Shown here one piece after another: positions 5,785 through 61,674 of a DNA stretch of 64,000 bases. This DNA is from Thermodesulfobacteriota bacterium (lineage in GTDB: Bacteria > Desulfobacterota > Desulfobacteria > Desulfobacterales > C00003060). Each line of letters opens with the position of its first letter. The stretch's first letter is position 1. The position numbers and the translations under genes were made by a program. The stretch is from positions 160,001 to 224,000 of the forward strand of contig JAXHVD010000002.1 in NCBI GenBank assembly GCA_034189385.1. Reading direction: 5' to 3'. The notes beneath the pieces were generated by a model, which worked only from the letters and a program-made list of their open reading frames with translations, did not search any database and had not been told where the DNA came from.

Positions 5785-8307
5785 ATGAAGAAAGAATCAG
5801 GCTATGAGGCGCTGAAAGGCAGGAACGGGACGCCGCAAAGGGGTGCCCTTGAGGGCAAGAAGGGGCCAGAAGCCATGATTAGGCAGGACGTTGTGCTGGA
5901 AATATTGAAGGCACTGCCAGGCACACTCAATGCCGTGGACAAAGATTATAATATTCTTATGGTCGGAGGTGAGATCGCACGTACATTTCAAGGAATAGAC
6001 CAGGTCATCGGGAAGAAATGCTACTCCGTTTTCCAGAACGCAGAGAGTCCCTGTCCTTGGTGCAAGATTGACAAAGTGCTCCAAGAAGGTGCCATCATAA
6101 ATGAAATAACGACTCCTGATGACCCCAGGGAAGTATTGATAAAAGCGCCGTTGCATATTTGCCTACGCCCCCTGAAGGATAGGGATGGCAATATCATAGG
6201 AGCCTTAGAGCTTGGTACGGACATTACCGAGATAAGAGAAGCCAATAAAAAGTACCAGCGTCTCCAGGATAAGCTCAAGAAAAGTGTGGAGAGGTATCGC
6301 CGAATGTTCGAGAACATACAAGATGTGTATTACGAAGTGACCATGGATGGCACCATTTTGGAGCTCAGTCCCTCCATTGAGGACGTGCTCCAATACAAGA
6401 GAGAAGAGCTGATTGGCAAATCAACATACGATACCTACGCAGATCCGAGAGAGAGAGACGAATTGGTAAATGCCCTTAGAAAGAGTGGCACGCTCAGGGA
6501 CTACGAGATTGTTCTTAAGAATAGAGACGGCTCCCAGGTGTCTTGTTCGGTCTCCGTGCAGTTAGTCACCGATGACGAAGACCATTCGGAAAAGATCGTG
6601 GGTTCGTTGCGCAATGTGACGCAACGCAAGAGGGTGGAAGGGGAGCTATCGGATATTGCGGTCAAACAAGCGGCTATCATGGCCTCCTTTCCAGGGGTCG
6701 TAGACGTGGTCGATAGGGAGCTGAACGTCTTATGGGCAAACGAGACTGCGAGGGAGTTTGCACAAGGGGACCCCTTGGGGGAGAAATGCTATAAGGTATA
6801 TAGAGGAAGAGATAAACCCTGCGAGGACTGTCAGATTCTTGAGACATTCAAAACAGGGAAGCCAGCCCAGAGGGAGCAGAAAATAAGGCTTGCCAATGGG
6901 ACAACAGAATATTTTGATATCAAGACCAGTGTAGTGAAAAGTGATAAAGACGGCAATCCGACTCAGGTCCTGGAATGTGCTACCAACATTACTGAGCGCA
7001 AGCGAGCAGAAAAGGCGCTGCAGAAGGCTCACGAAGAGTTGGAAAGGCAGGTGGAGAGAAGGACGGCGGAACTGGTCAAAGCCAACAAAAAATTGAAGCA
7101 TGAGATAGAGGCGGGGCAGCGGCGAGATGCGGCGTTGCGGGAGAGTACTCACCGGTTGCAACTTGTTTATGAGCAATCCCTTGCCTATGCACAAGAGCTC
7201 AGGCAAGGAATCGTTGACCGTGAGAGGGTAGAGAAAGCGCTGCGGGAGTCTGAAGCAAGATTGCAGTTAATACTCCAGACCATACCAACTGGTTTGTTTA
7301 TGGTCGATTTAGATAGACAGATCACTTACTGGAACAAAGAAGCGGAGAAGATTACGGGACTGCGGGCGGAAGATGCCGTTGGAAAGCAGTGCCTTGAAGC
7401 CTTTGATTGTGCGGACTGTAGGCAAGGATGCCCTCTTTTTGATGCCGAAGCGGGCGAGCCATTGCAGGAAGAGTCTACGATCTATGTGGGCGGCAAGAAA
7501 ATCCTAATTTCGAGATATGGACACCTTCTCAAGAATGTGTCAGGGCGCGCCGTTGGTGGTGTGCAAACTTTCATTGAGATCACCGAGCGCAAGCGCGCTG
7601 AGCAGGCCCTTGTTACCTCCCATGACAAACTCCAGTCTCTGGCATCGGAATTGTCCCTGGCCGAAGAGCGGGAACGGCGCCGTGTTGCCAGCGAAGTGCA
7701 CGACTGTTGTAGTCAGAACTTGGCTTTTGTCAAGTTAAGATTGGGAGCCTTGAGAGCATCGACTGCCTCCAGTGATCTTGCCGCAGCCTTGGAAGAAATC
7801 CTGGAACTGGTTGATGAGAGCATCGAAAACACACGATCCTTGATTTCTGAACTTGGTTCTCCAATTCTCTACGAATTGGGATTTGTGCCAGCAGTGGAAT
7901 GGCTCTGCCAACAGACTCAGAAGCGGCACGGCATCGTGGTAGACTTTGAGGATGACGGCCAGGCCAAGCCGCTAAGTGATGATGTCCGAGTGCTCTTATT
8001 TCAGGCCGTGCGCGAGGTGTTGATCAACATTGTCAAGCACGCCGAAACGCAGATTGCTAGGGTGTCTATTGCCAGAGTTGACGATCAGGTGCGAGTTGAA
8101 GTGCAAGATGATGGGGTTGGATTCGAGAGCACTGAAATTGGCCCCAGTCTGGACACAACAGGGAGGTTTGGTCTATTCAGCATCCGGATGCGATTGGAGC
8201 CACTGGGCGGACAGATGGTGGTGGATTCTAAACCTGACCGCGGCACTCAGGTCACTTTAAGGGCTCCGCTGGAGCACGTCGGGGGCAAGGAGGGAAGGGT
8301 GCCATGA
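5785..8307 (+). CDS. Cytoplasmic multi-PAS sensor histidine kinase (HisKA_3/NarX-type)
   Basis: Four PAS/PAC-like units, EERERRRVASEVHD H-box, N-box EVLINIVKHA, DDGVGF; no TM segment. Confidence 0.9.
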   Translation: MKKESGYEALKGRNGTPQRGALEGKKGPEAMIRQDVVLEILKALPGTLNAVDKDYNILMVGGEIARTFQGIDQVIGKKCYSVFQNAESPCPWCKIDKVLQEGAIINEITTPDDPREVLIKAPLHICLRPLKDRDGNIIGALELGTDITEIREANKKYQRLQDKLKKSVERYRRMFENIQDVYYEVTMDGTILELSPSIEDVLQYKREELIGKSTYDTYADPRERDELVNALRKSGTLRDYEIVLKNRDGSQVSCSVSVQLVTDDEDHSEKIVGSLRNVTQRKRVEGELSDIAVKQAAIMASFPGVVDVVDRELNVLWANETAREFAQGDPLGEKCYKVYRGRDKPCEDCQILETFKTGKPAQREQKIRLANGTTEYFDIKTSVVKSDKDGNPTQVLECATNITERKRAEKALQKAHEELERQVERRTAELVKANKKLKHEIEAGQRRDAALRESTHRLQLVYEQSLAYAQELRQGIVDRERVEKALRESEARLQLILQTIPTGLFMVDLDRQITYWNKEAEKITGLRAEDAVGKQCLEAFDCADCRQGCPLFDAEAGEPLQEESTIYVGGKKILISRYGHLLKNVSGRAVGGVQTFIEITERKRAEQALVTSHDKLQSLASELSLAEERERRRVASEVHDCCSQNLAFVKLRLGALRASTASSDLAAALEEILELVDESIENTRSLISELGSPILYELGFVPAVEWLCQQTQKRHGIVVDFEDDGQAKPLSDDVRVLLFQAVREVLINIVKHAETQIARVSIARVDDQVRVEVQDDGVGFESTEIGPSLDTTGRFGLFSIRMRLEPLGGQMVVDSKPDRGTQVTLRAPLEHVGGKEGRVP

Positions 8308-8957
8308 GCATAAGAGTTCTGCTAGCCGACGACCACAGGATCATGCGGTCAGGCCTCCGCTCCTTGCTTGAAAAGGAGTCCGACATGGAAGTTGTTGGAG
8401 AGGCAGACAACGGCCGAAGGACGGTGCAATTGGCCCGGGAGCTCTCTCCGGACGTGGTGATCATGGATATCAGTATGCCCGATTTGAACGGCATTGAGGC
8501 AAGTCGTCAGATTGTTTCCGAAGTGCCTGACGTGAAGGTGGTGGCCCTGTCCATGCATTCGGACGAGCAATTTGTTGGGCAAATGCTCGATAGCGGTGCA
8601 ACTGGCTATCTGCTGAAGGACTGTGCCCTTGAGGAATTGTGTCGCGCCATCCGCGTGGTGGTTGCGAACAAGAGCTATCTGAGCCCCGGGATAGCAGATA
8701 TCGTGGTGAAGACCTACCGGCGTGAATTGTCAAGAGCCGAGCCTGCAGGTCCCCGGGAGCTGACGCCTAGGGAACGGGAGGTCCTTCAGCTTGTGGCCGA
8801 AGGCAATAGCTCCAAGAAGATCGCCTCCCGTCTCCATGTGAGCATGAAGACGGTAGAGGCCCATCGCCACCAGATTATGGATAAGTTGGATATTCGCAGT
8901 GTAGCCGAGCTTACCAAGTATGCCATTCGCAAAGGAATCACCTCCCTGGAAACGTGA
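8304..8957 (+). CDS. NarL/LuxR-family response regulator 1
   Basis: LADDH, MDISMP, YLLKD; HTH LTPREREVLQLVAEG; ATGA overlap with kinase. Confidence 0.95.
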   Translation: MSIRVLLADDHRIMRSGLRSLLEKESDMEVVGEADNGRRTVQLARELSPDVVIMDISMPDLNGIEASRQIVSEVPDVKVVALSMHSDEQFVGQMLDSGATGYLLKDCALEELCRAIRVVVANKSYLSPGIADIVVKTYRRELSRAEPAGPRELTPREREVLQLVAEGNSSKKIASRLHVSMKTVEAHRHQIMDKLDIRSVAELTKYAIRKGITSLET

Positions 8958-9147
8958 CCATAGAGTAGCGAACATAGAAAAATAAGGGATGCCGGTGAAA
9001 AGTGGAACCGAACCCGAACCGATATTCAAAGATTCGCTGGACAGTAGAAACCTCCTTGATCGTTCAGGCAATATTTTGACCAGATCATCAACGTCCCGTT
9101 CTTACCCTTTCTACATACTAATGAGATCATTGACATTTAGACATAAG

Positions 9148-9320
9148 GTCACCGCCCGCTCCCCTTCGACATTGCTACATTCGGCCTGAGCTCATGTCGA
9201 AGGCAGAGTCGCTTGAGACGGAAAGGACACAAGGTTGATTAGCTCATTAGCTCACCAGCTTAATAGCCTGTTAACAGCGGAAAACATAAAGAAAAATAGA
9301 CTCTGCGCTCTTGGCCTTTC
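9148..9320. repeat. REP-like palindromic element, family C
   Basis: TCACCGCCCGCTCCCCTTCGAC...GTCGCTTGAGACG is the reverse complement of 58770-58818; GCGGAAAACATAA shared with 35791-35933. Confidence 0.6.
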
Positions 9321-9605
9321 GGCTCTGAGCGGCTCGACTTGAGCTCGCCGACAAGTCTCAAGGCCGAGGGGCGCCTTTGCGGTGAATCTTTGTTTCTAAA
9401 ACTAAGAGGCTATATCTAAATACTTTTTTCCGCATTCGTAAGATGAAGAGAGAGTCAAGAGACGCATCCAGGTGCAGCTCGGGGCCTGTGTCACCAATTG
9501 CAGGTCCAGAATGCTGGGCGTCTGAGGGTATATTGACGTGAGAATGCGAAGGGTTCCAGGCAGGGCGCTGGCAGCTCTTTTCCTTCACCAAAGGGGGTGT
9601 CACAG

Positions 9606-11909
9606 GTGAGCGAGCATATAAAATGTTGGGAATTTTTCGAATGTCAGCAGATCGATTGCCCTGTTTATAAGGCAAAGGAGGAGAAGTGTTGGCTCGTCTC
9701 AGGGACGTGTTGTCGAAATGAGAACCAGGGAAAATTCCTGGAAAAGATAGAGCTGTGCCTGGACTGTGAGCCCTTTAAGAGAAATGTCGATCTTGAGTCG
9801 CTGGAAGAGACACTTCAGTCGGTCAATGAGCAGTTCACCGAGTTCAGGGCCATGGTTGACGAGCGAGACAGGGAGTTGGAAGAGACAAGTATGGAGTTGG
9901 CCTTGGGCCTGTCAGAGGTCTTCGAGGCACTGAAAAACATTGCCTCAGGAAACCCTGCAGTCAGACTTTCTGAGGGCTCGCAACTGCCGTTGCTTGAAAA
10001 GCTGAAGGAGCTGGTCAACGAGACAGCGAGCAATCTCGGGGAAATCGTTGATCTTTCCCACGAGTTTGCCATGGGCCTCGCCGAGCACTTCGACGCATTG
10101 CACCGGGTCTCAACGGGTGATTTAGACGCGCGGGTGAAAGGAACCTCTCAGGTAGAGCTATTGGAAAGGTTGAAAGAAGTAACGAATGACATGATCCAAA
10201 GTGTGTCAAGAGAGATTTCCAACCGTAAACGGGCAGAGGAGGAACTGCAGAAGGCTCACGACCAATTAGAAAGACGGGTGAAGGAACGGACGATCGACCT
10301 GGTCAAAGCAAACGAAGAATTGAAGCGAGAAGTAGAAAGACGTAAGCGGCGAGATAAGGCACTGAAGATAAGCAATCAACGGTTGCAGGTTGCTTATCAG
10401 CAATCCATCGCCTACGCGTCGAGGCTCACCGAGCAGATTGCTGAACGCAGGAAGGCAGAGGAGGCGCTACGGGAGTCTGAGTCAACATTGCAGTTAATAT
10501 TCAGGACCATACCAACTGGTTTGTTCATGGTCGATTTGGACAAAAAGATCACATACTGGAACAAAGAGGCGGAGAGGATTACGGGGCTGAAGGCAGAGGA
10601 CATTGTAGGCAAGGACTGTATCCTGGCCTTTCAATGTAAGGAATGTAGTTATGATTGTGCCCTTCTCGATGAAACGAAACCAATGCACCAGAAGGAGTCT
10701 ACGATAAATCTTGGTGACAGGGAAATAGTGATTCAGAAGTATGGAGATGTTATTACAGATGCCAAAGGGAAAAAGATTGGTGGTGTGAGAGCCTTCATTG
10801 ACATTACTGAGCGCAAGCGGGCAGAAGCGGCGGTGCGGGAGTCGGAACAGAAGTACATTAGCTTGGTTGAAAATTCGCTAACTGGTATCTACATTGACCA
10901 AGATGGAAGGATTGTATTTGCCAATAACAAATTTGCCGAGATTTACGGCTACCAGAAAAGGGAGTTGATCGGCATAGAGTCCTGGAAGCTGGTGCATCCT
11001 GAGGACCGGGGCTTAACGGCCGAGATGAGGCAAAAGAGGCTAATGGGAAAAGGGGTCCCAGAAGAGTACGACGCCAAGGGTTTGACAAAAGATGGGGAGA
11101 CCATATGGCTTACCAGGAGAAACATCAGAATAGAGTATAAAGGAAGGCCGGCAGTATTGGGTAACGTGGTGGTCATTACCGAGCGCAAGGAGGCAGAAGG
11201 AAAGCTTCTTAGCTATCACGAAAGACTTCGGTCTCTGGCTTCGGAATTGTCCTTGGCCGAGGAGCGCGAGCGGCGCCGTGTCGCAAATGAAGTGCATGAC
11301 CGTATTAGTCAGAACCTGGCTTTTGTAAAGATGAGGTTGGGAACTCTACAGTCATCGACTGCCAGCGGCGGTCTCAAGGAATCAGTGGACGAAATGCTCG
11401 AGCTAATGGATGAGACCATCCAAAACACACGATCCCTTATTTCTGAACTGGGTTCGCCGATTCTCTATGAGCTCGGATTTGTGCCTGCAGTGGAGTGGCT
11501 CACCCAACAAACCCAGAGACAGCATGGCATCGTGGTAGCCTTTCAGGATGACGATAAGCTCAAGCCCCTAAGAGATGATGTCGCTGTCCTCTTATTTCAG
11601 GCAGCGCGCGAGTTGCTGGTCAACATTGTCAAGCACGCCCAAGCGCGCCATGCAAAGGTATCCATTACGAGAGAAAATGATAAGGTGCAAGTGGACGTGG
11701 AAGATGACGGCGTTGGATTCGACTGTGTCGAAATTGGCTCCAGTGTATGCACAAGCGGTGAATTTGGCTTGTTCAGTATCCAGGAGCGATTGTATCCTCT
11801 TGGCGGGCGCATGGACATGGAATCCAAACGCGGTGAAGGGACCCGGGTATCCCTGGTGGCCCCGCTGGAACGTGAGGAAGGACAGAGAGAGGAGAAAGTG
11901 GTGTTATGA
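9606..11909 (+). CDS. Sensor histidine kinase with N-terminal Cys-rich CW-type domain, HAMP-like segments, PAS domains and HisKA_3
   Basis: CWEFFEC...CP...CWLVSGTCC...CLDC; HDRISQNL H-box; DDGVGF; GTG 9606 is best spaced from AAGGGGG (track start 9597). Confidence 0.88.
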   Translation: MSEHIKCWEFFECQQIDCPVYKAKEEKCWLVSGTCCRNENQGKFLEKIELCLDCEPFKRNVDLESLEETLQSVNEQFTEFRAMVDERDRELEETSMELALGLSEVFEALKNIASGNPAVRLSEGSQLPLLEKLKELVNETASNLGEIVDLSHEFAMGLAEHFDALHRVSTGDLDARVKGTSQVELLERLKEVTNDMIQSVSREISNRKRAEEELQKAHDQLERRVKERTIDLVKANEELKREVERRKRRDKALKISNQRLQVAYQQSIAYASRLTEQIAERRKAEEALRESESTLQLIFRTIPTGLFMVDLDKKITYWNKEAERITGLKAEDIVGKDCILAFQCKECSYDCALLDETKPMHQKESTINLGDREIVIQKYGDVITDAKGKKIGGVRAFIDITERKRAEAAVRESEQKYISLVENSLTGIYIDQDGRIVFANNKFAEIYGYQKRELIGIESWKLVHPEDRGLTAEMRQKRLMGKGVPEEYDAKGLTKDGETIWLTRRNIRIEYKGRPAVLGNVVVITERKEAEGKLLSYHERLRSLASELSLAEERERRRVANEVHDRISQNLAFVKMRLGTLQSSTASGGLKESVDEMLELMDETIQNTRSLISELGSPILYELGFVPAVEWLTQQTQRQHGIVVAFQDDDKLKPLRDDVAVLLFQAARELLVNIVKHAQARHAKVSITRENDKVQVDVEDDGVGFDCVEIGSSVCTSGEFGLFSIQERLYPLGGRMDMESKRGEGTRVSLVAPLEREEGQREEKVVL

Positions 11910-12562
11910 GCATAAGGGTTCTGCTAGCCGACGACCACACGATCATGCGGTCAGGCCTTCGCTCCTTGCTTGAAAAGGAGTCCGACATGGAAGTTGTTGG
12001 AGAGGCAGACAACGGCCGAAGGACAGTGCAATTGGCCCGGGAGCTCTCTCCGGACGTGGTGATCATGGATATCAGTATGCCCGATTTGAACGGCATCGAG
12101 GCAAGTCGCCAGATTGTTTCCGACGTGCCTGACGTGAAGGTGGTGGCCCTGTCCATGCATTCGGACGAGCAATTTGTTGCGCAAATGCTCGATAGCGGTG
12201 CAACTGGCTATCTGCTGAAGGACTGTGCCCTTGAGGAATTGTGTCGCGCCATCCGCGTCGTGGTTGCGAACAAGAGCTATCTGAGCCCCGGGATAGCAGG
12301 TGTCGTTGTTGAAACCTACCGGCGGCGTGAACGGGCAAGGGGCGAACCTCGCCGTTTCCGCGAGCTGACGCCCAGGGAACGGGAGGTCCTTCAGCTTGTG
12401 GCCGAAGGCAAGAGTTCCAAGGAGATCGCCTCCCTTCTCCATGTGAGCATAAAGACGGTAGAGGCCCATCGCCACCAAATGATGGATAAATTGAATATTC
12501 GCAGTGTAGCCGAGCTCACCAAGTATGCGATTCGCAAAGGAATAACCTCTCTCGATACCTGA
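11906..12562 (+). CDS. NarL/LuxR-family response regulator 2 (near-identical to regulator 1)
   Basis: Receiver + LuxR HTH; ATGA overlap with kinase 2. Confidence 0.95.
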   Translation: MSIRVLLADDHTIMRSGLRSLLEKESDMEVVGEADNGRRTVQLARELSPDVVIMDISMPDLNGIEASRQIVSDVPDVKVVALSMHSDEQFVAQMLDSGATGYLLKDCALEELCRAIRVVVANKSYLSPGIAGVVVETYRRRERARGEPRRFRELTPREREVLQLVAEGKSSKEIASLLHVSIKTVEAHRHQMMDKLNIRSVAELTKYAIRKGITSLDT

Positions 12563-12607
12563 CCACTCAGTAGCAGGTCAAAGGCAGTCTCAGCTGCTCC
12601 CCTCAAG

Positions 12608-12698
12608 ATCAGTAGTTTCCCCGGCTCGAAATGGGGGTATTTCCAGCCCCAAAATCCGTGATTTCCACAATTGCGCCCTGGTACAATGGGTGTATAAA
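12608..12698 (+). promoter_or_regulatory. Three-box operator + promoter, copy 1 (before regulator 3)
   Basis: Boxes at 12608/12631/12654, TTGCGC 12671, TATAAA 12693. Confidence 0.65.
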
Positions 12699-12969
12699 AA
12701 GGTAAAGCACGGAAAGGCCAAGGATAATGCCCTAAACCTTGGCAATGATATCTATTTAAATAGGGGGCTTGTCTCAAAAATTCCGTCGCAGCCGATGAAG
12801 AAAGTGCTGTCTAAAGAGGTTGCCCTGAGGGATTGGCTATGGGCTGCAGAGCATGGAATCATCAGCGGAGCGCGGGCAGAAGAAGGGCTTCTCACTTGTG
12901 ATGAAAAACGCCCGTCACGTTGATGGCGGCCCTGAAATACAAGAGGAGAAAGAGGGAGGAAAAGGTGCC

Positions 12970-13623
12970 ATGAGCATAAAGATATTGCTGGCAGACGATC
13001 ATAAGATCATGCGATCAGGCCTCCGCTCCTTGGTTGAAAGAGAACCCGACATGGAAGTGGTAGGCGAGGCAGAGAACGGACGGATGACCGTGCAGTTGGC
13101 CCGAAGACACTCTCCGGACGTGGTCATTATGGATATCGCTATGCCCGATCTAAACGGCATTGAGGCAAGTCGTCAGATTGTCTCCGAAGTGCCTGACGTG
13201 AAGGTGGTGGCCCTATCCATGCATGCAGGGGAGCATTTCGTTTCCGGAATGCTGGGTGCTGGAGCGTCGGGCTACCTTCTGAAGGACTGTGCCCTTGAGG
13301 AATTATGTCTGGCCATCCGCGCCGTGGTTTCGAACCAGAGTTATCTGAGCCCCAAGATTGCAGGGATCGTGGTCAAAGGCTACCGGCGTGAGCTGGAAAG
13401 GGCCGAGCCCTCTAGTCCCTCGGCACTGACATCGAGGGAACGGGAGGTCCTTCAGCTTGTGGCTGAAGGCAAGAGCTCCAAGAAGATCGCCTCCCGCCTC
13501 CACGTGAGCGTGAAGACCATAGAGGCGCACCGCCACCAAATCATGAGTAAGTTGAATCTTCACACTGTGGCTGAGCTTACGAAATATGCCATTGTCCAAG
13601 GGATACTGTGCCTCGAGGCGTGA
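12970..13623 (+). CDS. NarL/LuxR-family response regulator 3 (no adjacent kinase)
   Basis: MSIKILLADDH start homologous to regulators 1 and 2; receiver + HTH. Confidence 0.93.
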   Translation: MSIKILLADDHKIMRSGLRSLVEREPDMEVVGEAENGRMTVQLARRHSPDVVIMDIAMPDLNGIEASRQIVSEVPDVKVVALSMHAGEHFVSGMLGAGASGYLLKDCALEELCLAIRAVVSNQSYLSPKIAGIVVKGYRRELERAEPSSPSALTSREREVLQLVAEGKSSKKIASRLHVSVKTIEAHRHQIMSKLNLHTVAELTKYAIVQGILCLEA

Positions 13624-13663: not shown

Positions 13664-13754
13664 ATCAGGCGCTTTCCACTGAGAAAATCAGGTCCTTTAC
13701 GACGAGAAATTGGTAATTCCCATAATTGCATCCTTTTAAAAACCGCGGTAAGCA
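13664..13754 (+). promoter_or_regulatory. Three-box operator + promoter, copy 2
   Basis: Boxes at 13664/13687/13709, TTGCAT 13726. Confidence 0.65.
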
Positions 13755-14417: not shown

Positions 14418-14810
14418 ATGGACTACATGATCAAGAGGAAAGAGAGCGTTGAACGAAGGAAAGACAAACGGTTTGAGGTCCAGGAGGGAACCTTTGCGGT
14501 GTTCACACCCCATTTCAGCAATTGGGGGCAAGTGATAGATATAAGCAGGCATGGACTTGCCTTTCGCTATACGGGTAAGGGCCTGCCGAAAAACATGCCA
14601 TCTCAGCTAGGCATATCCATAGCCGATATTGGCTTTTATCTGGGCCGGATGCCATTCAAGGTCATTTCGGATTTTGAAATAGCGAGCGCGGGCTCTCACC
14701 GCTTGTCAATGGCAAGGCAATGTGGGGTGGAATTTGGCGAGCTGACTCCTGGTCAGATATCGCAGTTGGAATTTATTATCTCGAACTACACTCAAACTCA
14801 GGGCTATTGA
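14418..14810 (+). CDS. PilZ-domain protein (putative c-di-GMP receptor)
   Basis: RRKDKR (RxxxR) and DISRHG (DxSxxG) motifs. Confidence 0.85.
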   Translation: MDYMIKRKESVERRKDKRFEVQEGTFAVFTPHFSNWGQVIDISRHGLAFRYTGKGLPKNMPSQLGISIADIGFYLGRMPFKVISDFEIASAGSHRLSMARQCGVEFGELTPGQISQLEFIISNYTQTQGY

Positions 14811-16648: not shown

Positions 16649-16699
16649 GAGAGAAGAAAGTAGAGAAATCTTCACATCAGCCATTGACAGACACCATTT

Positions 16700-50899: not shown

Positions 50900-51094
50900 A
50901 TGTTCGGAATCGGCATGCCAGAGTTGATCATCATTATGGTCATCATCCTCATCATCTTTGGAGCTGGAAAACTCCCGGAGATCGGAAGCGGTATTGGCCA
51001 AGGGATCAAGAACTTTAAAAGAGCCACGTCAGGAGAGTTGGAAGAAAATACAGAAGCAAAAGAGATAGAAGGGCTAAAAGAGGAAAGAGCATAA
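50900..51094 (+). CDS. tatA: Twin-arginine translocase TatA/TatE-family subunit
   Basis: [12 protein letters not shown]...[20 protein letters not shown]. Confidence 0.93.
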
Positions 51095-51107: not shown

Positions 51108-54100
51108 ATGGCGTCATCACATACGCGGTGGGAGGTCAGGCACGGCATCCAAATAGGTGTCGCGTCCTTCTTGTTAATCTGGGCGATCACCACAGCAGGC
51201 ATACCAAAGGCCTATGCTGTGACATACGAGCTCACTGGAGACGGATTGGGATTATCGCAAGGAAACCATGGCACCTCGTTGACGATATCGCCTGAATTGT
51301 CATTGTCCGCCCTCACCTGGGGAAACTGTTGCGGGTACCCTACAGGATACCCCGGAATCATCTATCTGCACCAGACAGACGGCACGGGCGTCCGGTGGGG
51401 AAGCACCGGATTGTCCTCAAAAAAGATCTCTGGCTGGGGAATAGGTCGCTACGAGTCGCTCATATTCGACTTTTCTTCAGGAGCAGACGCACAATCCATC
51501 ACCATCTGGATCAACGAGATTCATAAGCATGGCGGTCCATCTGGTTCTCCCGTGGACTTATGGGTCAAACCCTCTTCCGGATCGGCCTTTGAGATTGATG
51601 ATGTTTCATCATACCTTCATTATACAGATGGCGACACAGCCTACGTGGATTTTTCCGAGCTCTCCGACCTAAGCGGCGTGGGCTCCATCGAACGGGTCAT
51701 CGTAAGAGCGAACTACGGCTTTCATCTCTATATCAGTCGCATTGACTGCCAGCCTTTCACAGACGCTGACGGTGACGGCTATCCGGCAGATAATGACTGC
51801 AACGATGGCGATCCGAATATCAACCCCGGCGCCACGGAAATATGTAACGGGGTGGATGACAACTGTGACGGCGATATTGATGAAGGCTGTCCGATCTACT
51901 ACCGCGATGCCGATGGCGACGGTTTTGGGGATCCCGATGACACGACTACCGTTCCGCAGTCAGGCTATGTCAGCAATGGATCGGACTGTGACGATACCAA
52001 TGGAAGCATCTATCCCGGCGCCACCGAGTACTGTAACGGGGTGGATGACGATTGCGACGGGCAGACGGATGAAGGCTGCGCGCTGTGGTACCGTGACGGG
52101 GACGGTGATGGCTATGGCCATCTCACCGATTCGTCTACCTACCAGCACGACGATTACACCACGCACAACAACGGTGACTGCGACGACAGCGATTCTAGCA
52201 TCAATCCCGGCGCCACAGAGGTGTGTGACGGCATAGACAATAACTGCGACGGCCTGACAGATGAGGGCTGTACGATCTACTATCGAGATGGCGATGGCGA
52301 TGGTTATGGCGATTCCACGGACTCCCAGATAGCCACGAGCCCGCCATATGGCTATGTAGATAACGATGGTGACTGCGACGACAGCGATTCTAGCATCAAT
52401 CCCGGCGCCACAGAGGTGTGTGACGGCATAGACAACAACTGCGACGGCCTGACAGATGAGGGCTGTACGACCTACTATCGAGATGGCGATGGCGACGGCT
52501 ATGGCGATGTGACGGACTCCCAAATAGCCACCAGCCCGCCGTCCGGCTATGTGCCGAACTCCGATGACTGCGACGATACGGATGACACCATCTATCCTGG
52601 TGCTACCGAGGCCTGCAACGGCGTAGATGACGACTGTGATGGGGTAACGGATGAAAACTGTGCCATCATCACCTATTATAGGGATGCCGACGGTGACGGC
52701 TATGGCGATCCCATGGACTCCACTACAGGGACCACTCCCCCATCGGGCTATGTCGCTGACTCGAGCGACTGCGACGACAGCGATTCCAATGTCAATCCCG
52801 GGGCTACTGAACAGTGCAACGGCTACGATGACGACTGTGACTCGTTTACCGATGAGGGTTGCCCCCTTCTCTACTGGGATGGCGACAGCGACGGCTACGG
52901 CAATCCTGCCGGACCCACCACGAAGATTCCGCAGGCAGGCTATGTGGCTGACGCCAGTGACTGCGACGATACCAACGGGGCCATCCATCCGCTCGCGACA
53001 GAAGTGTGCAATGGCGTGGATGACAACTGTGACGGCAATACGGATGAAGGGTGTGCCACGTACTATCGGGATGCGGACGGTGACACGTACGGCGATTCTG
53101 GAGACTCTACGACGGCGACGAGTCAGCCGGCCGGTTATGTAGCCAATGCTGGTGACTGTGACGACACGAATAGTGCCATCAATCCGGGCGCGACAGAAGT
53201 TTGTAATGGTGTGGATGACAACTGTGATGGCAATACAGATGAAGGCTGCGCGACCTATTATCGGGATGCGGACGGTGACACGTACGGCGATTCTGGAGAC
53301 TCTACGACGGCGACGAGTCAGCCGGCCGGTTATGTAGCAAACGCTGGTGACTGTGACGACACGAATGGTGCCATCAATCCGGGTGCGACAGAAGTTTGTA
53401 ATGGTGTGGATGACAACTGTGATGGCAATACGGATGAAGGCTGCGCGACCTATTATCGGGATGCGGACGGTGACACGTACGGCGATCCTGGGGATTCCAC
53501 GATGGCGACGAGTCAGCCTGCGGGTTATGTAGCAAACGCTGGTGACTGTGACGACACGAATGGTGCCATCAATCCGGGTGCTACTGAAGTGTGCAATGGG
53601 GTAGATGACAACTGTGACGGCAATACGGATGAAGGGTGTGCCACTTACTATCGCGATGCGGACGGCGACACCTATGGCGATGCCGGAGACTCCACGGTGG
53701 CGACGAGCCAGCCAGCCGGCTATGTGACCGACTCCAGCGACTGCGACGACACGAATGGGGCCATCAATCCGGGTGCGACAGAAGTCTGCAACGGTGTGGA
53801 TGATAATTGCGATGGGAATACCGATGAGGGTTGCGTCACGTACTATCAGGATGCAGATAGCGACAGCTTTGGCAACTCTTCAGCCTCTCAAGTGGCCACC
53901 AGCCAGCCGGCGGGCTATGTGCCGACCCCGGGGGACTGCAACGACAATGACAATACCGTCTATCCAGGGGCCGCGGAACTCTGTGATGGCAAGGATAATG
54001 ACTGCGATACCCAGGTTGACGAGGGCTGCACCCTTCTTTACTGGGACGGCGATAGTGATGGCTGGGGAAATCCCGCTGGACCAACAAGCACAGTGCCGCA

Positions 54101-55958
54101 GTCGGGCTATGTAGCCAATGCTGGTGACTGTGACGACACCAACGGTGCCATTAATCCGGGTGCCACGGAAGTCTGCAATGGTGTGGATGACAACTGCGAC
54201 GGGACGACGGATGAGGGTTGCGCGACGTACTACCGCGATGCAGACGGCGACACCTATGGCGATGCCGGAGACACCACAGTGGCTACCAGCCAGCCAGCGG
54301 GCTATGTGACCGACTCGAGTGACTGCGACGACACCAATGGAGCGATCAACCCGGGTGCCACGGAAGTTTGCAATGGTGTGGATGACAACTGCGACGGAAA
54401 CACAGATGAGGGTTGCGCGACTTACTACCGCGATGCAGACGGCGATACCTATGGCGATGCCGGAGACACCACAGTGGCTACCAGCCAGCCAGCGGGCTAT
54501 GTGACGGATTCGAATGACTGCGACGACACCAATGGGGCCATCAATCCGGGTGCGACAGAAGTTTGTAATGGTGTGGATGACAACTGTGATGGCAATACAG
54601 ATGAAGGCTGCGCGACCTATTATCGGGATGCGGACGGTGACACGTACGGCGATTCTGCAGACTCTACGACGGCGACGAGTCAGCCGGCCGGTTATGTAGC
54701 AAACGCTGGTGACTGTGACGACACCAATGGTGCGATCAACCCGGGTGCCACGGAAGTTTGCAATGGTGTGGATGACAACTGCGACGGAAACACAGATGAG
54801 GGTTGCGCGACGTACTACCGCGATGCAGACGGCGACACCTATGGTGATGCTGGAGACTCGACCACAGCCACGAGTCAGCCAGCCGGCTATGTAACGGATT
54901 CGAGCGACTGTGACGACACCAACGGAGCCATCAACCCGGGCGCGACAGAAGTCTGCAACCTTGTAGATGACAACTGTGACGGAAACACAGATGAGGGTTG
55001 CGCGACTTACTACCGCGATGCGGACGGCGACACCTATGGTGATCCTGGAGACTGGACTACAGCTACGAGCCAGCCAGCGGGCTATGTAGCCAACGCTGGT
55101 GACTGTGACGACACGGACAGTGCCATCAACCCGGGCGCCACGGAAGTCTGCAATGGCTTGGATGACGACTGCGATGGGCAGAGCGATGAAGGGTGTCCGG
55201 CCCTGTATCAGGATGCCGATAACGACGGTTATGGAGATCCTGCCGGGCCTACAACGACCATTCCCCAGACAGGCTATGTGGCTGACGCAAGTGACTGCAA
55301 CGACAGCGACAACACGATCTACCCCGGCGCCCCTGAGGCCTGTAACGGCATAGATGACGACTGCGACGGGACGATTGACGAGGGCTGTCCTCCTGTTACG
55401 TATTACTACCGCGACGCCGACGGCGATGGTTATGGCGATCCCGGTGATTCCGTAACGACACCGACATCAGGGTACGTAGCCAATAATGACGACTGCGATG
55501 ATACGAATGACGATATTCATCTCGGGGCCACGGAACAGTGCAATGGGGTGGATGACGACTGCGATGGGGCCACAGACGAAGGTTGTGTGATCTACTACGA
55601 GGACTCTGATGGGGATGGGTATGGAGATCCTGCTTCCACAAAGACCGTAGCATCGCCTGCGCCACCACCGGGCTATGTGTCTAACAGCAGTGACTGTAAT
55701 GACAGCAACGCCCTGATCTATCCCGGCGCCCCTGAGCGGTGTAACAACAGTAAGGATGATGATTGCGATGGTCTAACGAATGAAGGCTGCATATCCGGTT
55801 TAGGCGGTGGCGGCGGCGGCGGCTTGAACTATGTGGGCGGCGTGGCCTTGCCGGTAGATAAGCTTGGCCTGCTGGCCCCCTGGGTGGGTCTGGCCGCGTT
55901 GATGACGGCCATGATCGCCTTGGCAACATGGAGGAAAAAGCGAGGCAGTATCACCTAA
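51108..55958 (+). CDS. Large acidic surface protein with ~21 Cys/Asp-rich repeats (MopE-like putative metal-binding motif + DxDxDG) and C-terminal anchor
   Basis: Signal peptide ending AYA; unit YYRDADGDTYGD...DCDDTNGAINPGATEVCNGVDDNCDGNTDEGC; TM + RKKR tail. Confidence 0.9.
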   Translation: MASSHTRWEVRHGIQIGVASFLLIWAITTAGIPKAYAVTYELTGDGLGLSQGNHGTSLTISPELSLSALTWGNCCGYPTGYPGIIYLHQTDGTGVRWGSTGLSSKKISGWGIGRYESLIFDFSSGADAQSITIWINEIHKHGGPSGSPVDLWVKPSSGSAFEIDDVSSYLHYTDGDTAYVDFSELSDLSGVGSIERVIVRANYGFHLYISRIDCQPFTDADGDGYPADNDCNDGDPNINPGATEICNGVDDNCDGDIDEGCPIYYRDADGDGFGDPDDTTTVPQSGYVSNGSDCDDTNGSIYPGATEYCNGVDDDCDGQTDEGCALWYRDGDGDGYGHLTDSSTYQHDDYTTHNNGDCDDSDSSINPGATEVCDGIDNNCDGLTDEGCTIYYRDGDGDGYGDSTDSQIATSPPYGYVDNDGDCDDSDSSINPGATEVCDGIDNNCDGLTDEGCTTYYRDGDGDGYGDVTDSQIATSPPSGYVPNSDDCDDTDDTIYPGATEACNGVDDDCDGVTDENCAIITYYRDADGDGYGDPMDSTTGTTPPSGYVADSSDCDDSDSNVNPGATEQCNGYDDDCDSFTDEGCPLLYWDGDSDGYGNPAGPTTKIPQAGYVADASDCDDTNGAIHPLATEVCNGVDDNCDGNTDEGCATYYRDADGDTYGDSGDSTTATSQPAGYVANAGDCDDTNSAINPGATEVCNGVDDNCDGNTDEGCATYYRDADGDTYGDSGDSTTATSQPAGYVANAGDCDDTNGAINPGATEVCNGVDDNCDGNTDEGCATYYRDADGDTYGDPGDSTMATSQPAGYVANAGDCDDTNGAINPGATEVCNGVDDNCDGNTDEGCATYYRDADGDTYGDAGDSTVATSQPAGYVTDSSDCDDTNGAINPGATEVCNGVDDNCDGNTDEGCVTYYQDADSDSFGNSSASQVATSQPAGYVPTPGDCNDNDNTVYPGAAELCDGKDNDCDTQVDEGCTLLYWDGDSDGWGNPAGPTSTVPQSGYVANAGDCDDTNGAINPGATEVCNGVDDNCDGTTDEGCATYYRDADGDTYGDAGDTTVATSQPAGYVTDSSDCDDTNGAINPGATEVCNGVDDNCDGNTDEGCATYYRDADGDTYGDAGDTTVATSQPAGYVTDSNDCDDTNGAINPGATEVCNGVDDNCDGNTDEGCATYYRDADGDTYGDSADSTTATSQPAGYVANAGDCDDTNGAINPGATEVCNGVDDNCDGNTDEGCATYYRDADGDTYGDAGDSTTATSQPAGYVTDSSDCDDTNGAINPGATEVCNLVDDNCDGNTDEGCATYYRDADGDTYGDPGDWTTATSQPAGYVANAGDCDDTDSAINPGATEVCNGLDDDCDGQSDEGCPALYQDADNDGYGDPAGPTTTIPQTGYVADASDCNDSDNTIYPGAPEACNGIDDDCDGTIDEGCPPVTYYYRDADGDGYGDPGDSVTTPTSGYVANNDDCDDTNDDIHLGATEQCNGVDDDCDGATDEGCVIYYEDSDGDGYGDPASTKTVASPAPPPGYVSNSSDCNDSNALIYPGAPERCNNSKDDDCDGLTNEGCISGLGGGGGGGLNYVGGVALPVDKLGLLAPWVGLAALMTAMIALATWRKKRGSIT
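51760..55790 (+). repeat. Intragenic tandem repeat, ~195 bp period, ~21 units
   Basis: Near-identical central units (53050-55190); synonymous variation between units. Confidence 0.9.
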
Positions 55959-57116: not shown

Positions 57117-58436
57117 ATGAAAAAAGAGACAGATCTTGACAGAAGAAAGTTTTTGAAAGGCAGCGTGATCGGGGCCGGTGTACTGACCACCGGCTTTGCG
57201 ACCGGGCTGTCTTTACCGGGCACCGCCCATGCGTCGCTCCCCACGTTGCCGTTACCGTATTGTAGGATATATAACGGCTCAAGTTGGGTACCCAGTTCCG
57301 ACCCAGGGTCATACAGCCCTTCGTACAGACAGGCTGTCCTTGACCCGGATGACGTGAGGGTCATGACCTGGTGGTATTACAATTCGGGCAAGGGGTGAAT
57401 GCAGTCCTGTGTGTCAGGTTTGATGCAAGGATTCAAAGCGGCATTTGCCAGTGACAGCACGGACTGGGACTTTATTCCCTATGACATGTACATGTACGGC
57501 GGAGGCGGCATTGGCGGTTGGGGCACCCTGTGCGGGATTCCCAACGGTTGCGCGGCCTTGACGAATCTCATCGGCCTCCACGGCGCCTTGGGATCAGACA
57601 TCCTGGGCCACTATTCCAGCAGCGAGTGGCCGCCTAGGACGCTTGCGGACATGTACCACGATCCCGATCCCGTTTACGGCCCCGGTGGCTCGGGCGGCTA
57701 CACCTGGGTCAAGACACCCATGCATGATGACGACGTTTTGGCCCACGTGATTCCTTATTCACCCCTGTGCCACATATCCATCAGCAAGTGGTGCTATGCG
57801 GCGGGGGTCAACTTGGGTACCATGGGCACGGAAGGTTACCAGCACAAGAATGATCGTTGCGGCAAGATAGCCTCTGAGATGGCGGGTAAAACTGCTGAAA
57901 TGATCAATTATTACGCCCTTAACGTGGCCCGGTCAGACCCGTACGCGATCCCAGCGGCAACTGCAGACTGCTCTACCTGTCACTACACAGGCAGCGATCC
58001 CAATATAGCTCCCGCCCAGATCACCAAAATGGACTGCGCGGAGTGCCATGCGGTCACGCCCGACGCCGTTCATCAAGGCCTGAGGATGATCGTTGAAAGT
58101 GTGTGGACAGCAGACGGCTCCGGCACGCCCAAGAACACCTTTACCTCGGGTGACCCGATCCAGTACAAGGTTCGGTTCCACCTCTTGGGTGCCGGGTATT
58201 GCTACGTGAAGACCGGCGTGTCCAAAGTGAAAGACAGTGCCGGTGTCAAGATGCTGAAGCTTGTCAAGAGTGACACGTTAGTTGCAGCTACCTATGACTG
58301 GACGTGGTCTGATACCATCGACCCAACCGATGCTCTTGGCACGGCAAAGGTCATTATGCGTTTGAAGTGCTTCGACTATGAAGGTGGCAATGTCCTTGAT
58401 AATCAGGAAATGAAGTACAAGTTTACCATCGTATAA
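57117..58436 (+). CDS. Tat-exported split-Soret cytochrome / C-GCAxxG-C-C family protein with one in-frame TGA (putative Sec), two CxxCH and C-terminal beta domain; 439 aa
   Basis: DRRKFLK signal; YYNSGKG-TGA(57396)-MQS continues in frame into GGGIGGWGTLCG, LCHISISKWC, DRC, CSTCH, CAECH. Confidence 0.85.
57404..57432 (+). promoter_or_regulatory. Putative bacterial SECIS hairpin
   Basis: GTGTCA-GGTT-TGATGC with lower GTCCT/AGGAT stem; G-first loop 18 nt after TGA. Confidence 0.68.
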
Positions 58437-59182: not shown

Positions 59183-59812
59183 ATGACCAGTAAGAGGAGC
59201 CTGTTGCTATTGGCCGGCTTTTTAGCGGTCTTCATCACAATGATAGGAGCAGCGAAAGCAGAAGAGGGGTTTCAGATTGACTCTGTAGTGGTCACTGATG
59301 CCTATGGTAACGAGATGGACGAATTCGAGGTCTATAACCCCGTCATGATAAAAGTGAATTATACCGTTGATGACGGGATCGCGCCCTGCTGCGTGAAGGT
59401 AATCGTGAAAGGCTTTGACCAGCGGCGTGTAAACAAACTGACTCTGGATTCTGCAGGTAGCGATACCATCACCGAGGCCCTGAATCCGACAAGATCCGGG
59501 GAGGCGAACATCAAGTGCATTTTGAAGGTGTTTAAGGACGGTGTGCTCCTGGGTAATAAGGACAAAGTCGTAAAGCACGTCACCATCATAGGTCTCCATG
59601 GTCCCGCGTGCTGGGGCTTAGAGGAATCCGAGTGCCGCAGTTGCCATGGGAATAATTTGGCAAACAGACACCACCTCACGGACACGGTTCTGAGAGACCA
59701 CCTGTGTACGGTTTGCCACCCAACATGTACGCCAGGTATTCCCAATTGTCCGAATGGGGTGCTGTTGATTAGGGATTGCCTGACGAGCGGCTGTCACACT
59801 CCGATCGATTAG
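59183..59812 (+). CDS. Small exported triheme cytochrome c with N-terminal beta domain
   Basis: Signal peptide ending AKA; CRSCH, CTVCH, CLTSGCH. Confidence 0.85.
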   Translation: MTSKRSLLLLAGFLAVFITMIGAAKAEEGFQIDSVVVTDAYGNEMDEFEVYNPVMIKVNYTVDDGIAPCCVKVIVKGFDQRRVNKLTLDSAGSDTITEALNPTRSGEANIKCILKVFKDGVLLGNKDKVVKHVTIIGLHGPACWGLEESECRSCHGNNLANRHHLTDTVLRDHLCTVCHPTCTPGIPNCPNGVLLIRDCLTSGCHTPID

Positions 59813-59862: not shown

Positions 59863-61674
59863 ATGAAAACGGATCGGTCTGCATTTTTGTTTCTGACGCT
59901 TTTGGCACTGCCCATTTTAATCCTGGTTGGCGCCCCTCATGTTTATGCGCTCGGCCATTACGGCATTCCCGGTACCCTGGACGGTTGTGATGTGTGCCAT
60001 GATTTCGCCGGTGGCTATTATGACAGCCCCACGTTGGGCAATCTTCGGTGGGTCAACTCCTCTATCGAATGGCCCTTGGGTACGGTCCACTCGCCCGTCA
60101 AGTTTACCATTTTTTCGAGCACTCTCCCTGCCGACGGGACCATGGGTGATGGCGACGACTTGACGCTGGATGGTCCCTGTGAAGTATGCCATACCACAGC
60201 AGATTACCACACCAATACAGGCGATGGAACGAACCATTTTGATGGTCAGAACTGCACGGCCTGTCATCCCCACTTTGCAAATGACATTATCAATTACTTC
60301 GAGCCCCGTTTCATTGGCACGCAATCCCATATCACCCACTGGACAGATCCAAAGGGGCCTCAACTGGGAGAGGATACCTGCACGGTGTGTCATTACGCAA
60401 GCGATTTTAGCCGGTTTGCCGACGGAGAACTCTTAGCCGACACGGCCATTTGTGATGGCTGCCATAGCCGTTACGGGGCCTATAACGGGGTGGACGATAC
60501 CACCGTCGGGGCCAAGGCCAACTGGGAGGAAGGGATCTACGAAGCGAACGGGTCCGACCTGAAACCCGGAAAAGACGATTGGTGTGCCACCTGCCATGAC
60601 AACGGGACCTCCACCGTGAATGGGGTCGATGCCCCCAATGTGATGGGCGATAACACCACCTATGGCTACAACCTGTCCGGTCACGGAGAATATGCTCTTT
60701 TGTGTAAAGACTGTCACAGCTACACTGTGTTGCACACAGACGGTGATGCAAGAACGTACGCGGCTGCAAGCAATAACTACCGGGACGGGTACAGGCTGAA
60801 CGAAGACATGGCTGTTCCCCGAAATGGTGAGATCCATCCGCAAGCCTTCAGGCTTTGCACCAACTGCCATACCTATACAGACATCACCGGGCCCACAAGC
60901 AACTTCAGGGATGATGGAAAGGGCCTGCAGTTTCATGAAATGCACCTCAACTGGTGGCCTGCCTTTATTTGTGCGGACTCGGATTTTGATGGTGTAGGCT
61001 GCAGTTCAGGGATCTGTAAGGATTCTGCCATGACTTGTATCAACTGTCACAATGTTCATGGGTCGCCCACAGCGCCTATGATCCGCCACGGAGAGCTGAT
61101 GAGCACTCCGGGTACGAGTGACAAAGTGCCTGCTTTGGATTTCCGTTGGTATAAGGCAGACGGTACGACGCAGACAACGGTACTGGAGGAGAGTCTTTAT
61201 GGTGGTCTGATTTGCGGGCTGATGCCCGATGTCTCGGTGAACCATGTCTGCTCTGGTTGCCACACCACCGCGCAGTTAAAGTGGTACAGAACCCCTGGAG
61301 GCCCTCTGGGCGTCACGGTGGAAGCGGTGTGGACCAGTACCCTGGCCGATGTCACCAAGACGGTATTTGCTCCCAATGAAGATATCCGGTATCACGCGCG
61401 TTTTAAGATTGTCGGGTCAGGCTCATACTTTGTGAAGGCCGCTGATTCAAAGGCAAAGAGCACTTCCGGGATATTTTGGAAAACCGAACTCGATCCAAAA
61501 AAGTTGACCCTCTCTGAAGGCACCTATGAGTGGACCTGGGATGAGGCCATTCCGGGAACGGCCACCCCAGGTTCAGGGGCAAAGCTCGTTGTTCTTATGA
61601 AGATGTTTGACGCCCCGGGAGGCACCTTACTGAGTAAAGAGAAAAAGACTGCAACCTTTAGCATCGCCCCATAG
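59863..61674 (+). CDS. Exported decaheme cytochrome c with C-terminal beta domain
   Basis: Signal peptide ending VYA; 10 CxxCH; start ATG 59863 behind AAGGGG. Confidence 0.92.
   Translation: MKTDRSAFLFLTLLALPILILVGAPHVYALGHYGIPGTLDGCDVCHDFAGGYYDSPTLGNLRWVNSSIEWPLGTVHSPVKFTIFSSTLPADGTMGDGDDLTLDGPCEVCHTTADYHTNTGDGTNHFDGQNCTACHPHFANDIINYFEPRFIGTQSHITHWTDPKGPQLGEDTCTVCHYASDFSRFADGELLADTAICDGCHSRYGAYNGVDDTTVGAKANWEEGIYEANGSDLKPGKDDWCATCHDNGTSTVNGVDAPNVMGDNTTYGYNLSGHGEYALLCKDCHSYTVLHTDGDARTYAAASNNYRDGYRLNEDMAVPRNGEIHPQAFRLCTNCHTYTDITGPTSNFRDDGKGLQFHEMHLNWWPAFICADSDFDGVGCSSGICKDSAMTCINCHNVHGSPTAPMIRHGELMSTPGTSDKVPALDFRWYKADGTTQTTVLEESLYGGLICGLMPDVSVNHVCSGCHTTAQLKWYRTPGGPLGVTVEAVWTSTLADVTKTVFAPNEDIRYHARFKIVGSGSYFVKAADSKAKSTSGIFWKTELDPKKLTLSEGTYEWTWDEAIPGTATPGSGAKLVVLMKMFDAPGGTLLSKEKKTATFSIAP

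Follow-up and report, generated by a model that had tools for sequence, protein, structure and literature searches.

Soluble [NiFeSe] hydrogenases exported by the twin-arginine translocation (Tat) pathway, such as HysAB of Desulfovibrio vulgaris (2WPN) and Desulfomicrobium baculatum (1CC1 and 4KN9), carry selenocysteine (Sec, or U in motifs) in L2, one of the metal-binding motifs of the large subunit. Paired Sec residues (UXXU) have been described in group 4 only, in membrane-bound energy-converting complexes, by a survey that excluded groups 1 to 3 and cited two group 1 sequences of the CXXU type (PMC13582414), and the hydrogenase selenoproteins listed elsewhere have UxxC or CxxU (PMC13188914, PMC1976440). 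OmcZ of Geobacter sulfurreducens (7LQ5, 8D9M) and OmcZ2 of Candidatus Methanoperedens (PMC9473688, PMC13748539) are octaheme cytochromes with C-terminal immunoglobulin-like (Ig) domains; three His-His (HH) pairs are the hallmark of the family (PMC13748539), and the Geobacter operon runs omcZ-ozpA-prolyl isomerase (bioRxiv 10.64898/2026.07.18.739370). Here we analyse a 64,000-nt window (the whole stretch under study, positions 160,001 to 224,000 of the forward strand of contig JAXHVD010000002.1, assembly GCA_034189385.1) from a Thermodesulfobacteriota bacterium, in which a hydrogenase with a predicted di-Sec active site is encoded together with two OmcZ-like cytochromes. Judging from the sequence, this conserved hydrogenase-OmcZ module, which lies inside a wider envelope regulon, is real and apparently undescribed. 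Our literature search, in which subscription papers and supplements were outside the scope and may list such genes, returned no description of a group 1 UxxU enzyme or of a hydrogenase-OmcZ operon; the accessible portions of PMC10553843, PMC9012536 and PMC13638558 contain no such operon, and the word hydrogenase is absent from those of three OmcZ structure papers. The window is part of contig C12 of a 4.13-Mb assembly (G000) that is 90% complete; loci, genomes and contigs are denoted by L, G and C numbers where they have to be told apart, and coordinates are given in Table 1.

The hydrogenase subunits, encoded by hydS and hydL, have the features of group 1 [NiFe] enzymes, namely the L1 and L2 motifs, a cleavable tail with a protease, and a three-cluster, Tat-exported small subunit. 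The nearest solved enzymes, both by sequence (the small-subunit match) and by fold (the top Foldseek rows), are the group 1a [NiFeSe] hydrogenases, and the best NCBIfam models are likewise those of HysAB, although the scores remain far below the cut-offs (323 bits versus 600 for NF033181, 236 versus 780 for NF045518, and 199 versus 470 for NF045520). Like HysAB, the enzyme appears to be soluble and Tat-exported, with no hydrophobic window in hydS or hydL and thus no membrane anchor, and the medial cluster has a Cys ligand, which is found in 16 of 17 aligned small subunits (Pro in L123). Unlike in HysAB, the predicted Sec residues occupy both Cys positions of L1 (R-T-U-G-V-U when the TGA codons are read through) rather than L2, which reads D-P-C-C-A-C-T-V-H and is all Cys in the 23 rows of the clade, the HysAB signature DPUxxC being absent. 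Furthermore, all 17 aligned small subunits (one misaligned and judged by eye) have Cys where the distal-cluster His would be. In a FastTree phylogeny of 122 full-length group 1 large subunits, from which partial genes and 15 loci that were duplicates or not hydrogenases had been excluded, the long-form enzymes form a single branch of 23 rows (support 95). Their large-subunit core spans 615 to 829 aa, as against 440 to 560 aa in other group 1 rows, and compared with other group 1 enzymes these large subunits are richer in Gly, Pro and Thr, poorer in Glu, Lys and Arg, and denser in NxS/T sequons (0.81 versus 0.50 per 100 aa). We classify the enzyme as a long, group-1a-derived hydrogenase, the closest subclade of which is present in 3 of 401 genomes of the class, all from the genus of the host.

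The two in-frame TGA codons of hydL fall on the 2 Cys positions of L1, which hold terminal and bridging Ni ligands (assignment after PMC13582414), and are followed by a predicted Sec insertion sequence (SECIS) hairpin. Both codons are found in 20 of the 23 close loci with a readable L1 (the window itself not counted), the other 3 representing one Cys-type sequence devoid of a hairpin; on the long-form branch, 19 rows are UxxU and 4 are CxxC, two of them identical. The hairpin rule, which was fixed only after the sequences had been inspected, is passed by 26 of 29 distinct UxxU sequences versus 18 of 100 CxxC sequences; the 3 UxxU failures are Chloroflexota enzymes from another branch, and both CxxU rows fail as well. 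The SECIS stems vary between subclades by compensatory changes, and selA, selB, selC and selD were all found in the host genome. Sec is thus very probably inserted at both codons. An alternative meaning of these codons, either Cys insertion by the tRNA-ReC system, which is frequent in UxxU genomes and may insert Cys (PMC13582414), or a dead gene, is highly improbable: nhmmer and relaxed ARAGORN searches recovered a single canonical tRNA-Sec but neither a further tRNA-Sec-like gene nor tRNA-ReC (a miss being possible at this completeness), the second cysS match is a CysK-CysS fusion of a cysteine synthase with a cysteinyl-tRNA-synthetase-like domain (G000:C14:40609-42909), and a pseudogene was rejected because TGA is confined to the 2 Cys positions in 19 intact hydL frames.

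Only 5 of 63 close database matches span the whole hydL query, and all 5 are Cys-type. Gene callers cut such frames at the TGA codons, and motif-based hydrogenase surveys therefore likely miss UxxU proteins of group 1. Because L1 is missing from most alignment rows, the AlphaFold prediction for the large subunit cannot be relied on in this region. TGA codons in L1 also occur in group 1 large subunits of normal length, of the UxxU (L014, L020, L053, L131) and CxxU (L006, L077) types; these belong to Chloroflexota and one deltaproteobacterium and sit on a separate branch with a different hairpin, with L131 as the sister of the long-form clade. Within group 1, N-terminal Sec looks more widespread than published. 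Two copies occur in the single genome G125, a UxxU form preceded by omcZ and a Cys-type form that has no omcZ before it and lies near selD (L202:8638-12267; L001:3000-6759).

Both octaheme cytochromes of the window are OmcZ homologues by profile and by fold, bearing out the OmcZ-like character given to them in the original prediction. With a profile built from 100 homologues, the 473-aa chain of 8D9M, which is OmcZ (PMC9473688), was recovered at an E-value of 6.9e-20, the match extending across the heme and Ig domains. The predicted model of copy b (mean predicted local distance difference test score 80, lower in the heme domain) superimposes on 7LQ5 in the VIA alignment with a Z score of 10.5 and deviates from it by 3.7 Å (root mean square) over 201 of 258 residues (range 35-375), the remaining entries in its structure list, 8D9M excepted, aligning to the Ig domains. 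Single-sequence phmmer searches of the PDB and Foldseek searches of the octaheme listed Ig/IPT folds only and not OmcZ. Eight heme motifs and 3 HH pairs are present in both copies, and 87 of the 100 homologues have 7 CxxCH motifs and exactly 3 HH pairs. The signal peptide, heme-domain fold, C-terminal Ig domains and a neighbouring peptidyl-prolyl isomerase (PPIase) are further points shared with OmcZ and OmcZ2. By contrast, the window proteins have CX4CH or CX7CH in place of CX14CH, a hydrogenase as neighbour and no adjacent OzpA, and of the conserved regions 1 to 4 of PMC13748539 only regions 2 to 4 are, by eye, partly kept. No OzpA subtilase motif was found in the window or in 35 hydrogenase-clade loci scanned, nor was an orthologue of the G001 subtilase catalytic domain found in the host assembly, and the aromatic-small-residue cleavage site after heme 8 (WFGN/GWAG) was detected by a simple pattern in 0 of the 100 homologues, in which a Pro-rich linker takes its place.

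Elsewhere, OmcZ-like paralogues stand head to head with a subtilase gene, with the shared 46-bp upstream motif described below between them (L194:9199-13118 and L197:1-5095, from G001 and G006), and the subtilase ends in a similar IPT-type tail; the family therefore includes the standard nanowire arrangement. The host genome has a third OmcZ-like gene (L165:9381-11516; G000:C12, about 17.4-19.5 kb), interrupted after the first IPT domain by an in-frame TGA at a non-Cys position, and one TGA also occurs in an OmcZ-like copy of G125.

Once duplicates had been discarded by eye and L190 set aside because its hydS starts at the contig end, 20 distinct loci with upstream sequence remained, and in 17 of them an omcZ-like gene directly precedes hydS-hydL, including loci in which the large subunit is only about 30% identical; the exceptions are the window, L082 and the Cys-type L096/L202. 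Among 37 genomes of the genus, which are kin rather than independent and in many cases incomplete, 8 encode the small subunit and 12 an OmcZ-like protein, all 8 falling within the 12 and none within the other 25. The conserved unit comprises the upstream motif described below, omcZ-like, hydS, hydL, protease and PPIase, and is far smaller than the 56-kb span; the synteny search proposed with the original prediction nevertheless comes out in its favour for the hydrogenase-cytochrome link, which recurs elsewhere behind the same motif. A homologue of the 10-heme cytochrome precedes PPIase-omcZ-hydS-hydL in 2 distant loci. In 2 relatives, the region upstream of omcZ-hydS-hydL (L091:41-3175; L204:4908-18088) encodes 16- and 25/26-heme cytochromes, an NHL protein and several 5- to 7-heme proteins. 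The locus of G020 (L193:9109-16325) retains omcZ-like, a 123-aa hydS stump, the PPIase and a sugar transferase, and the hydrogenase seems to have been deleted from this operon. In one wetland metatranscriptome, 7% of words were matched; its contigs, at most 414 nt long and uninformative on expression or co-expression, represent hydS and hydL in part, mostly at <95% identity, and little of the cytochromes.

The upstream motif consists of 2 repeats about 22 bp apart and ends at a −35-like hexamer, which is the layout of an activator site. The 46-bp matrix, seeded by 6 window sites, gave 14 sites genome-wide at ≥18 bits, 7 of them in the window, and none in the shuffled genome at ≥14 bits; when each seed was left out in turn, it was matched or beaten by 5 to 12 genome sites, other seeds included. 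The motif precedes omcZ-hydS-hydL in L002, L088, L090, L093 and L094 and hydS in L082, and was matched 7 times in 38 clade loci versus once, weakly, in 125 other loci. Of the 13 highest-scoring genome sites found with a matrix built from the relatives' sites, 7 fall in the window, but this matrix is not independent because those sites had been chosen with the window matrix. Outside the window, sites precede a paralogue of the 15-heme cytochrome, the Wza/Wzc pair, the downstream polysaccharide cluster and 2 exported surface proteins. The local NarL/LuxR-type regulators probably bind the motif and exert control through it, because they are its neighbours in the window and also in L002 and L094, where a homologous kinase-regulator pair precedes motif-omcZ-hydS-hydL. 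The original prediction of a shared operator was right about the motif and too generous about its reach: the sites span 12.6-41.0 kb, and at ≥14 bits none was found before the sensor kinases at 5785 and 9597 or from 41 to 62 kb, so that co-regulation of the right third of the 56-kb span is unsupported.

Table 1. Features of the window (positions counted from its first nucleotide).
Feature	Position	Strand	Remarks
Two PAS/HisKA_3 sensor kinases and three NarL/LuxR-type regulators	5785..13623	+	
Motif site	12628..12673	+	before third regulator
Motif site	13683..13728	+	before PilZ gene
Second hydrogenase maturation protease	14776..15252	-	
hypE, hypA, hypB, hypF	15459..20290	+	A, B and F the only copies found in assembly
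Motif site	16578..16623	+	before hypA
Radical SAM pair, HxsC-like and B12-binding	20328..22488	-	also beside hydrogenase in L002, L082, L094
hypC, hypD	23916..25218	-	only copies found in assembly
Motif site	25617..25662	+	706 nt before small subunit
hydS, hydrogenase small subunit	26368..27603	+	411 aa; Tat signal RRQFL; best match 2WPN_A, E 2.8e-50
hydL, long-form hydrogenase large subunit	27619..29958	+	779 aa; cleavable C-terminal tail
Two in-frame TGA of hydL	27799..27810	+	codons 61 and 64, both L1 Cys positions; predicted Sec
Predicted SECIS	27821..27837	+	7-bp stem, 3-nt loop beginning with G, 10 nt past second TGA
Hydrogenase maturation protease	30448..30918	+	kept behind hydL in relatives
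Motif site	31452..31497	+	before 315-aa gene; non-seed, found by matrix
Motif site	32602..32647	+	before 15-heme/omcZ-a/PPIase run
15-heme exported cytochrome	32810..35740	+	13 CxxCH and 2 longer motifs; two paralogues on contig C1
OmcZ-family octaheme, copy a	35960..38254	+	C-terminal IPT/Ig domains
Parvulin-type PPIase with lipobox	38329..39987	+	directly after omcZ copy a
tatA copy 1	40520..40855	+	
Motif site	40905..40950	+	before third kinase-regulator pair
Third HisKA_3 kinase and NarL/LuxR regulator	41088..42577	+	motif site upstream
OmcZ-family octaheme, copy b	42995..45319	+	three IPT/Ig domains; 7 CxxCH and CX4CH; three HH pairs
Parvulin-type PPIase with lipobox	45463..47139	+	directly after omcZ copy b; homologue behind hydrogenase in 8 relatives' loci
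B12 radical SAM, glycosyltransferase family 2 (GT2) protein, priming sugar transferase	47569..50863	+	
tatA copy 2	50900..51094	+	
MopE-repeat surface protein	51108..55958	+	1616 aa; 65-aa repeats; C-terminal transmembrane (TM) segment and basic tail
Split-Soret-cytochrome-like diheme protein, Tat-exported	57117..58436	+	predicted Sec: TGA 57396-57398, hairpin 57410-57427
Ig-like domain and truncated three-heme start of OmcZ-like protein	59183..59812	+	
10-heme exported cytochrome	59863..61674	+	C-terminal Ig-like domain

The region from 5785 to 61674 had been predicted, from the letters alone, to be a self-contained island linking a secreted hydrogenase to nanowire-like cytochromes. Its inventory holds up well: the hydrogenase is Tat-exported and anchorless, and no cytochrome b or other multi-TM gene was found in the window, in which multi-TM frames are only antisense shadows of other genes; the 2 maturation proteases, 2 tatA genes, PPIases, glycosylation cassette and repetitive surface protein are all present, and so is the second Tat selenoprotein with its own hairpin. 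The heme counts of about 15, 8, 8, 3 and 10 also stand, except that the 3-heme protein is a truncated octaheme chimera, 74% identical to the octaheme start over 61 residues and possibly a gene remnant. The hyp genes had been called private to this hydrogenase, which is contradicted by hypA, hypB, hypC, hypD and hypF being the only copies found in an assembly that holds 2 other Ni hydrogenases. Nor is the system self-contained, with tatC (contig C45), a porin-cytochrome conduit and the sel genes all on other contigs; there is indeed no such conduit in the window, though a GSU2203 decaheme and a GSU2204-type MtrB/PioB barrel, both above their family cut-offs, lie elsewhere (L173:2865-5797; G000:C63). 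Secretion of the hydrogenase does not follow either: Tat export of a diderm ends in the periplasm, and no GspD of a type II secretin was found in the assembly, the sole secretin found being PilQ; the OmcZ homologues, moreover, have neither the adjacent OzpA nor the cleavage motif that nanowires require. Of the likeness to the microbially influenced corrosion (MIC) island of Methanococcus maripaludis OS7 (PMC6181927), nothing survives beyond a possible function, the evolution of H2 from outside electrons; that island likewise groups a Tat-exported anchorless [NiFe] hydrogenase with tatA and a maturation protease. The host of that island has no outer membrane, so that Tat export amounts to secretion, and the island is 12 kb long, unstable and equipped with tatC and a carbonic anhydrase, no cytochrome being named in its accessible description; no carbonic anhydrase was found among 41 proteins of the window. 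As a 56-kb self-contained secreted system, the locus was overstated.

Of the remaining genes, the 10- and 15-heme cytochromes had no solved relative in phmmer searches, a profile of 89 homologues giving one weak c7-like match. The split-Soret-like selenoprotein matches split-Soret cytochrome c (1H21, E 7.4e-13) and differs from it by an extra C-terminal Ig-like domain and an NCBIfam score of 69 against a cut-off of 400; PMC13188914 includes Sec-containing versions of the C-GCAxxG-C-C proteins. The genome has 3 such paralogues (57117-58436, C63:20296-21603 and C29:17712-18950), 2 with a TGA and near-identical hairpin and one with Cys. A beta-rich domain of about 120 aa, without a Pfam hit or usable ESM Atlas hit, is common to this selenoprotein (58080-58433), the 10-heme cytochrome (61249-61668) and, by eye, the 3-heme chimera (59183-59620), and may be a common anchoring or sorting module. 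The radical SAM pair and 2 small unknown genes (20328-23527) accompany the hydrogenase as all 4 genes in L082 and as the pair in L002 and L094, and may together serve to modify a neighbouring protein. In L104, L107, L196 and L203, the gene behind the hydrogenase includes a sugar transferase among its followers. The MopE-repeat protein ends (55850-55958) in VGG..PVDK..LAPW, a TM segment and a basic tail, with no NCBIfam hit; we take the VGG..PVDK tail to resemble a surface sorting signal. The second sensor kinase starts with a Cys/Trp-rich segment (9597-9780) with no Pfam hit, possibly a metal or redox sensor ("two-CW").

The host, a member of the Desulfobacteria, can be taken for a sulfate reducer because its dsrA scores above the family cut-off. 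The 2 other Ni hydrogenases of the assembly are a standard periplasmic group 1 enzyme beside rnf, which keeps the distal His ligand, and an Mvh-type enzyme; a c3-type tetraheme and type IV pilus machinery are also encoded. Exosortase and exopolysaccharide (EPS) genes occupy both flanks of the window. Its GC content of 46-61% lies around a genome level near 52%. Signs of a mobile island are limited to a patchy presence (8 of 37 genus genomes): no border signs were seen, the chromosomal neighbours in G006 are the same, no tRNA was found in the window and no integrase among its 41 proteins scanned. An Rfam search of the window gave no match. Short non-coding intergenic repeats, 86-94% identical and in both orientations (22535-22815, 23604-23907 and 25340-25476; 5164-5448 with 30937-31422), are probably small mobile or repetitive extragenic palindromic (REP)-like elements. 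On contig C17 (L207:19-16000), the frame behind pilQ stays open for at least 4718 aa and starts like a lipoprotein; it likely encodes a giant adhesin.

How might the module work? We tentatively favour, at somewhat less than even confidence, a soluble, Tat-tagged di-Sec hydrogenase with an OmcZ-type carrier that would turn electrons from envelope cytochromes into H2. Low-potential electrons would arrive through cell-envelope cytochromes and pass from the octaheme to the hydrogenase, and the H2 would be reused by the ordinary hydrogenases of the cell for sulfate reduction. The octaheme is probably the direct electron partner, because an anchorless enzyme without cytochrome b needs a soluble partner and the conserved upstream gene is the obvious candidate; when the small subunit and the octaheme domain were modelled as a complex without cofactors, the score was 0.00, which counts neither for nor against the partnership. 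There are also reasonable grounds for supposing that the octaheme stays uncleaved, as OmcZ50 does, and that the enzyme works at the outer membrane or in the periplasm rather than free in the medium, release outside the cell being doubtful. A bias to H2 evolution is only slightly favoured over uptake. Outward electron flow would conserve no energy, because, on bioenergetic reasoning, H2 oxidised outside the inner membrane would move no charge across it, whereas inward electrons in the form of H2 are recoverable by the other 2 hydrogenases; the all-Cys relay agrees. Consistently, an Alteromonas enzyme engineered to carry the same double change, His to Cys and Pro to Cys, evolved 3- to 4-fold more H2, and in D. 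fructosovorans uptake was almost lost with H184C (PMC3701524). The PPIase gene behind each omcZ copy of the window, as in the Geobacter operon, fits the same picture.

Several observations weigh against this picture. In the Alteromonas enzyme, H230C alone doubled uptake, so that ligand sets do not fix direction (PMC3701524). No omcZ lies upstream in L082 or in one Cys-type lineage (L096/L202), and 4 of the 12 omcZ-bearing genus genomes have no match to the hydrogenase. In the window itself, the omcZ copies are 6 and 13 kb downstream of the hydrogenase and both belong to a subclade other than that of the hydrogenase-adjacent copies, as seen in a quick tree with long branches that was used only to show that window and syntenic copies differ; the host copy that groups with the syntenic ones is the TGA-interrupted gene, about 170 kb away. 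The GSU2204/GSU2203 porin-decaheme pair has no motif site.

Less probable, although the most serious of the alternatives, is a biofilm-expressed periplasmic uptake enzyme, for which an uncleaved OmcZ-type monomer would replace cytochrome c3 and carry electrons inward, to complexes of the inner membrane. Export by Tat with no type II secretin found, the absence of OzpA from the window and of a cleavage motif from the homologues, and an ancestry among group 1a uptake enzymes all accord with it. The genome, however, already encodes a tetraheme of the c3 type and a standard periplasmic hydrogenase that retains the His ligand, uptake in D. fructosovorans is disfavoured when the distal site is all Cys (PMC3701524), and 3 IPT/Ig domains and a surface-gene regulon are ill-suited to a freely diffusing shuttle. 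Rather improbable is export of the hydrogenase to the biofilm matrix, where it would dock on polymerised OmcZ-type nanowires and interconvert H2 and wire electrons at a distance, with a mineral, Fe0 or a partner cell. Lack of GspD, of a subtilase in the places searched and of the cleavage site behind heme 8 speaks against such a device, whose attraction lies in the retained hemes, HH pairs and fold of OmcZ, the composition and sequons of the long-form large subunit, the motif before Wza/Wzc and surface-protein genes, the subtilase-adjacent paralogues of G001 and G006, and the pilus machinery. Quite unlikely, finally, are co-regulated neighbours of an envelope or biofilm regulon that share PPIase and TatA helpers and exchange no electrons directly, because, for all the broken gene order in the window, the motif before EPS genes and the omcZ genes kept without the enzyme in some genomes, direct adjacency is retained across subclades about 70% different in sequence and the enzyme was not found without an omcZ-like gene in any of the genus genomes.

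The module provides OmcZ-family cytochromes with a candidate enzyme partner that could feed electrons into or out of their wires. It also extends UxxU to a soluble, exported group 1 enzyme, whose expression and crystallisation should be much less difficult than for the group 4 complexes, and thereby makes a natural Ni-Se-Fe bridge testable. Were the nanowire-docked arrangement true, it would be a catalytic nanowire with Se bridging Ni and Fe, by which uncultured sediment sulfate reducers would, at a distance from the cell, convert electrons of minerals, metals or partners to H2 or H2 back to electrons; a single device would then combine direct electron transfer with H2 transfer. In any case, the locus makes it possible to test directly whether sulfate reducers link H2 transfer with direct electron transfer, a question that bears on steel corrosion and sediment syntrophy.

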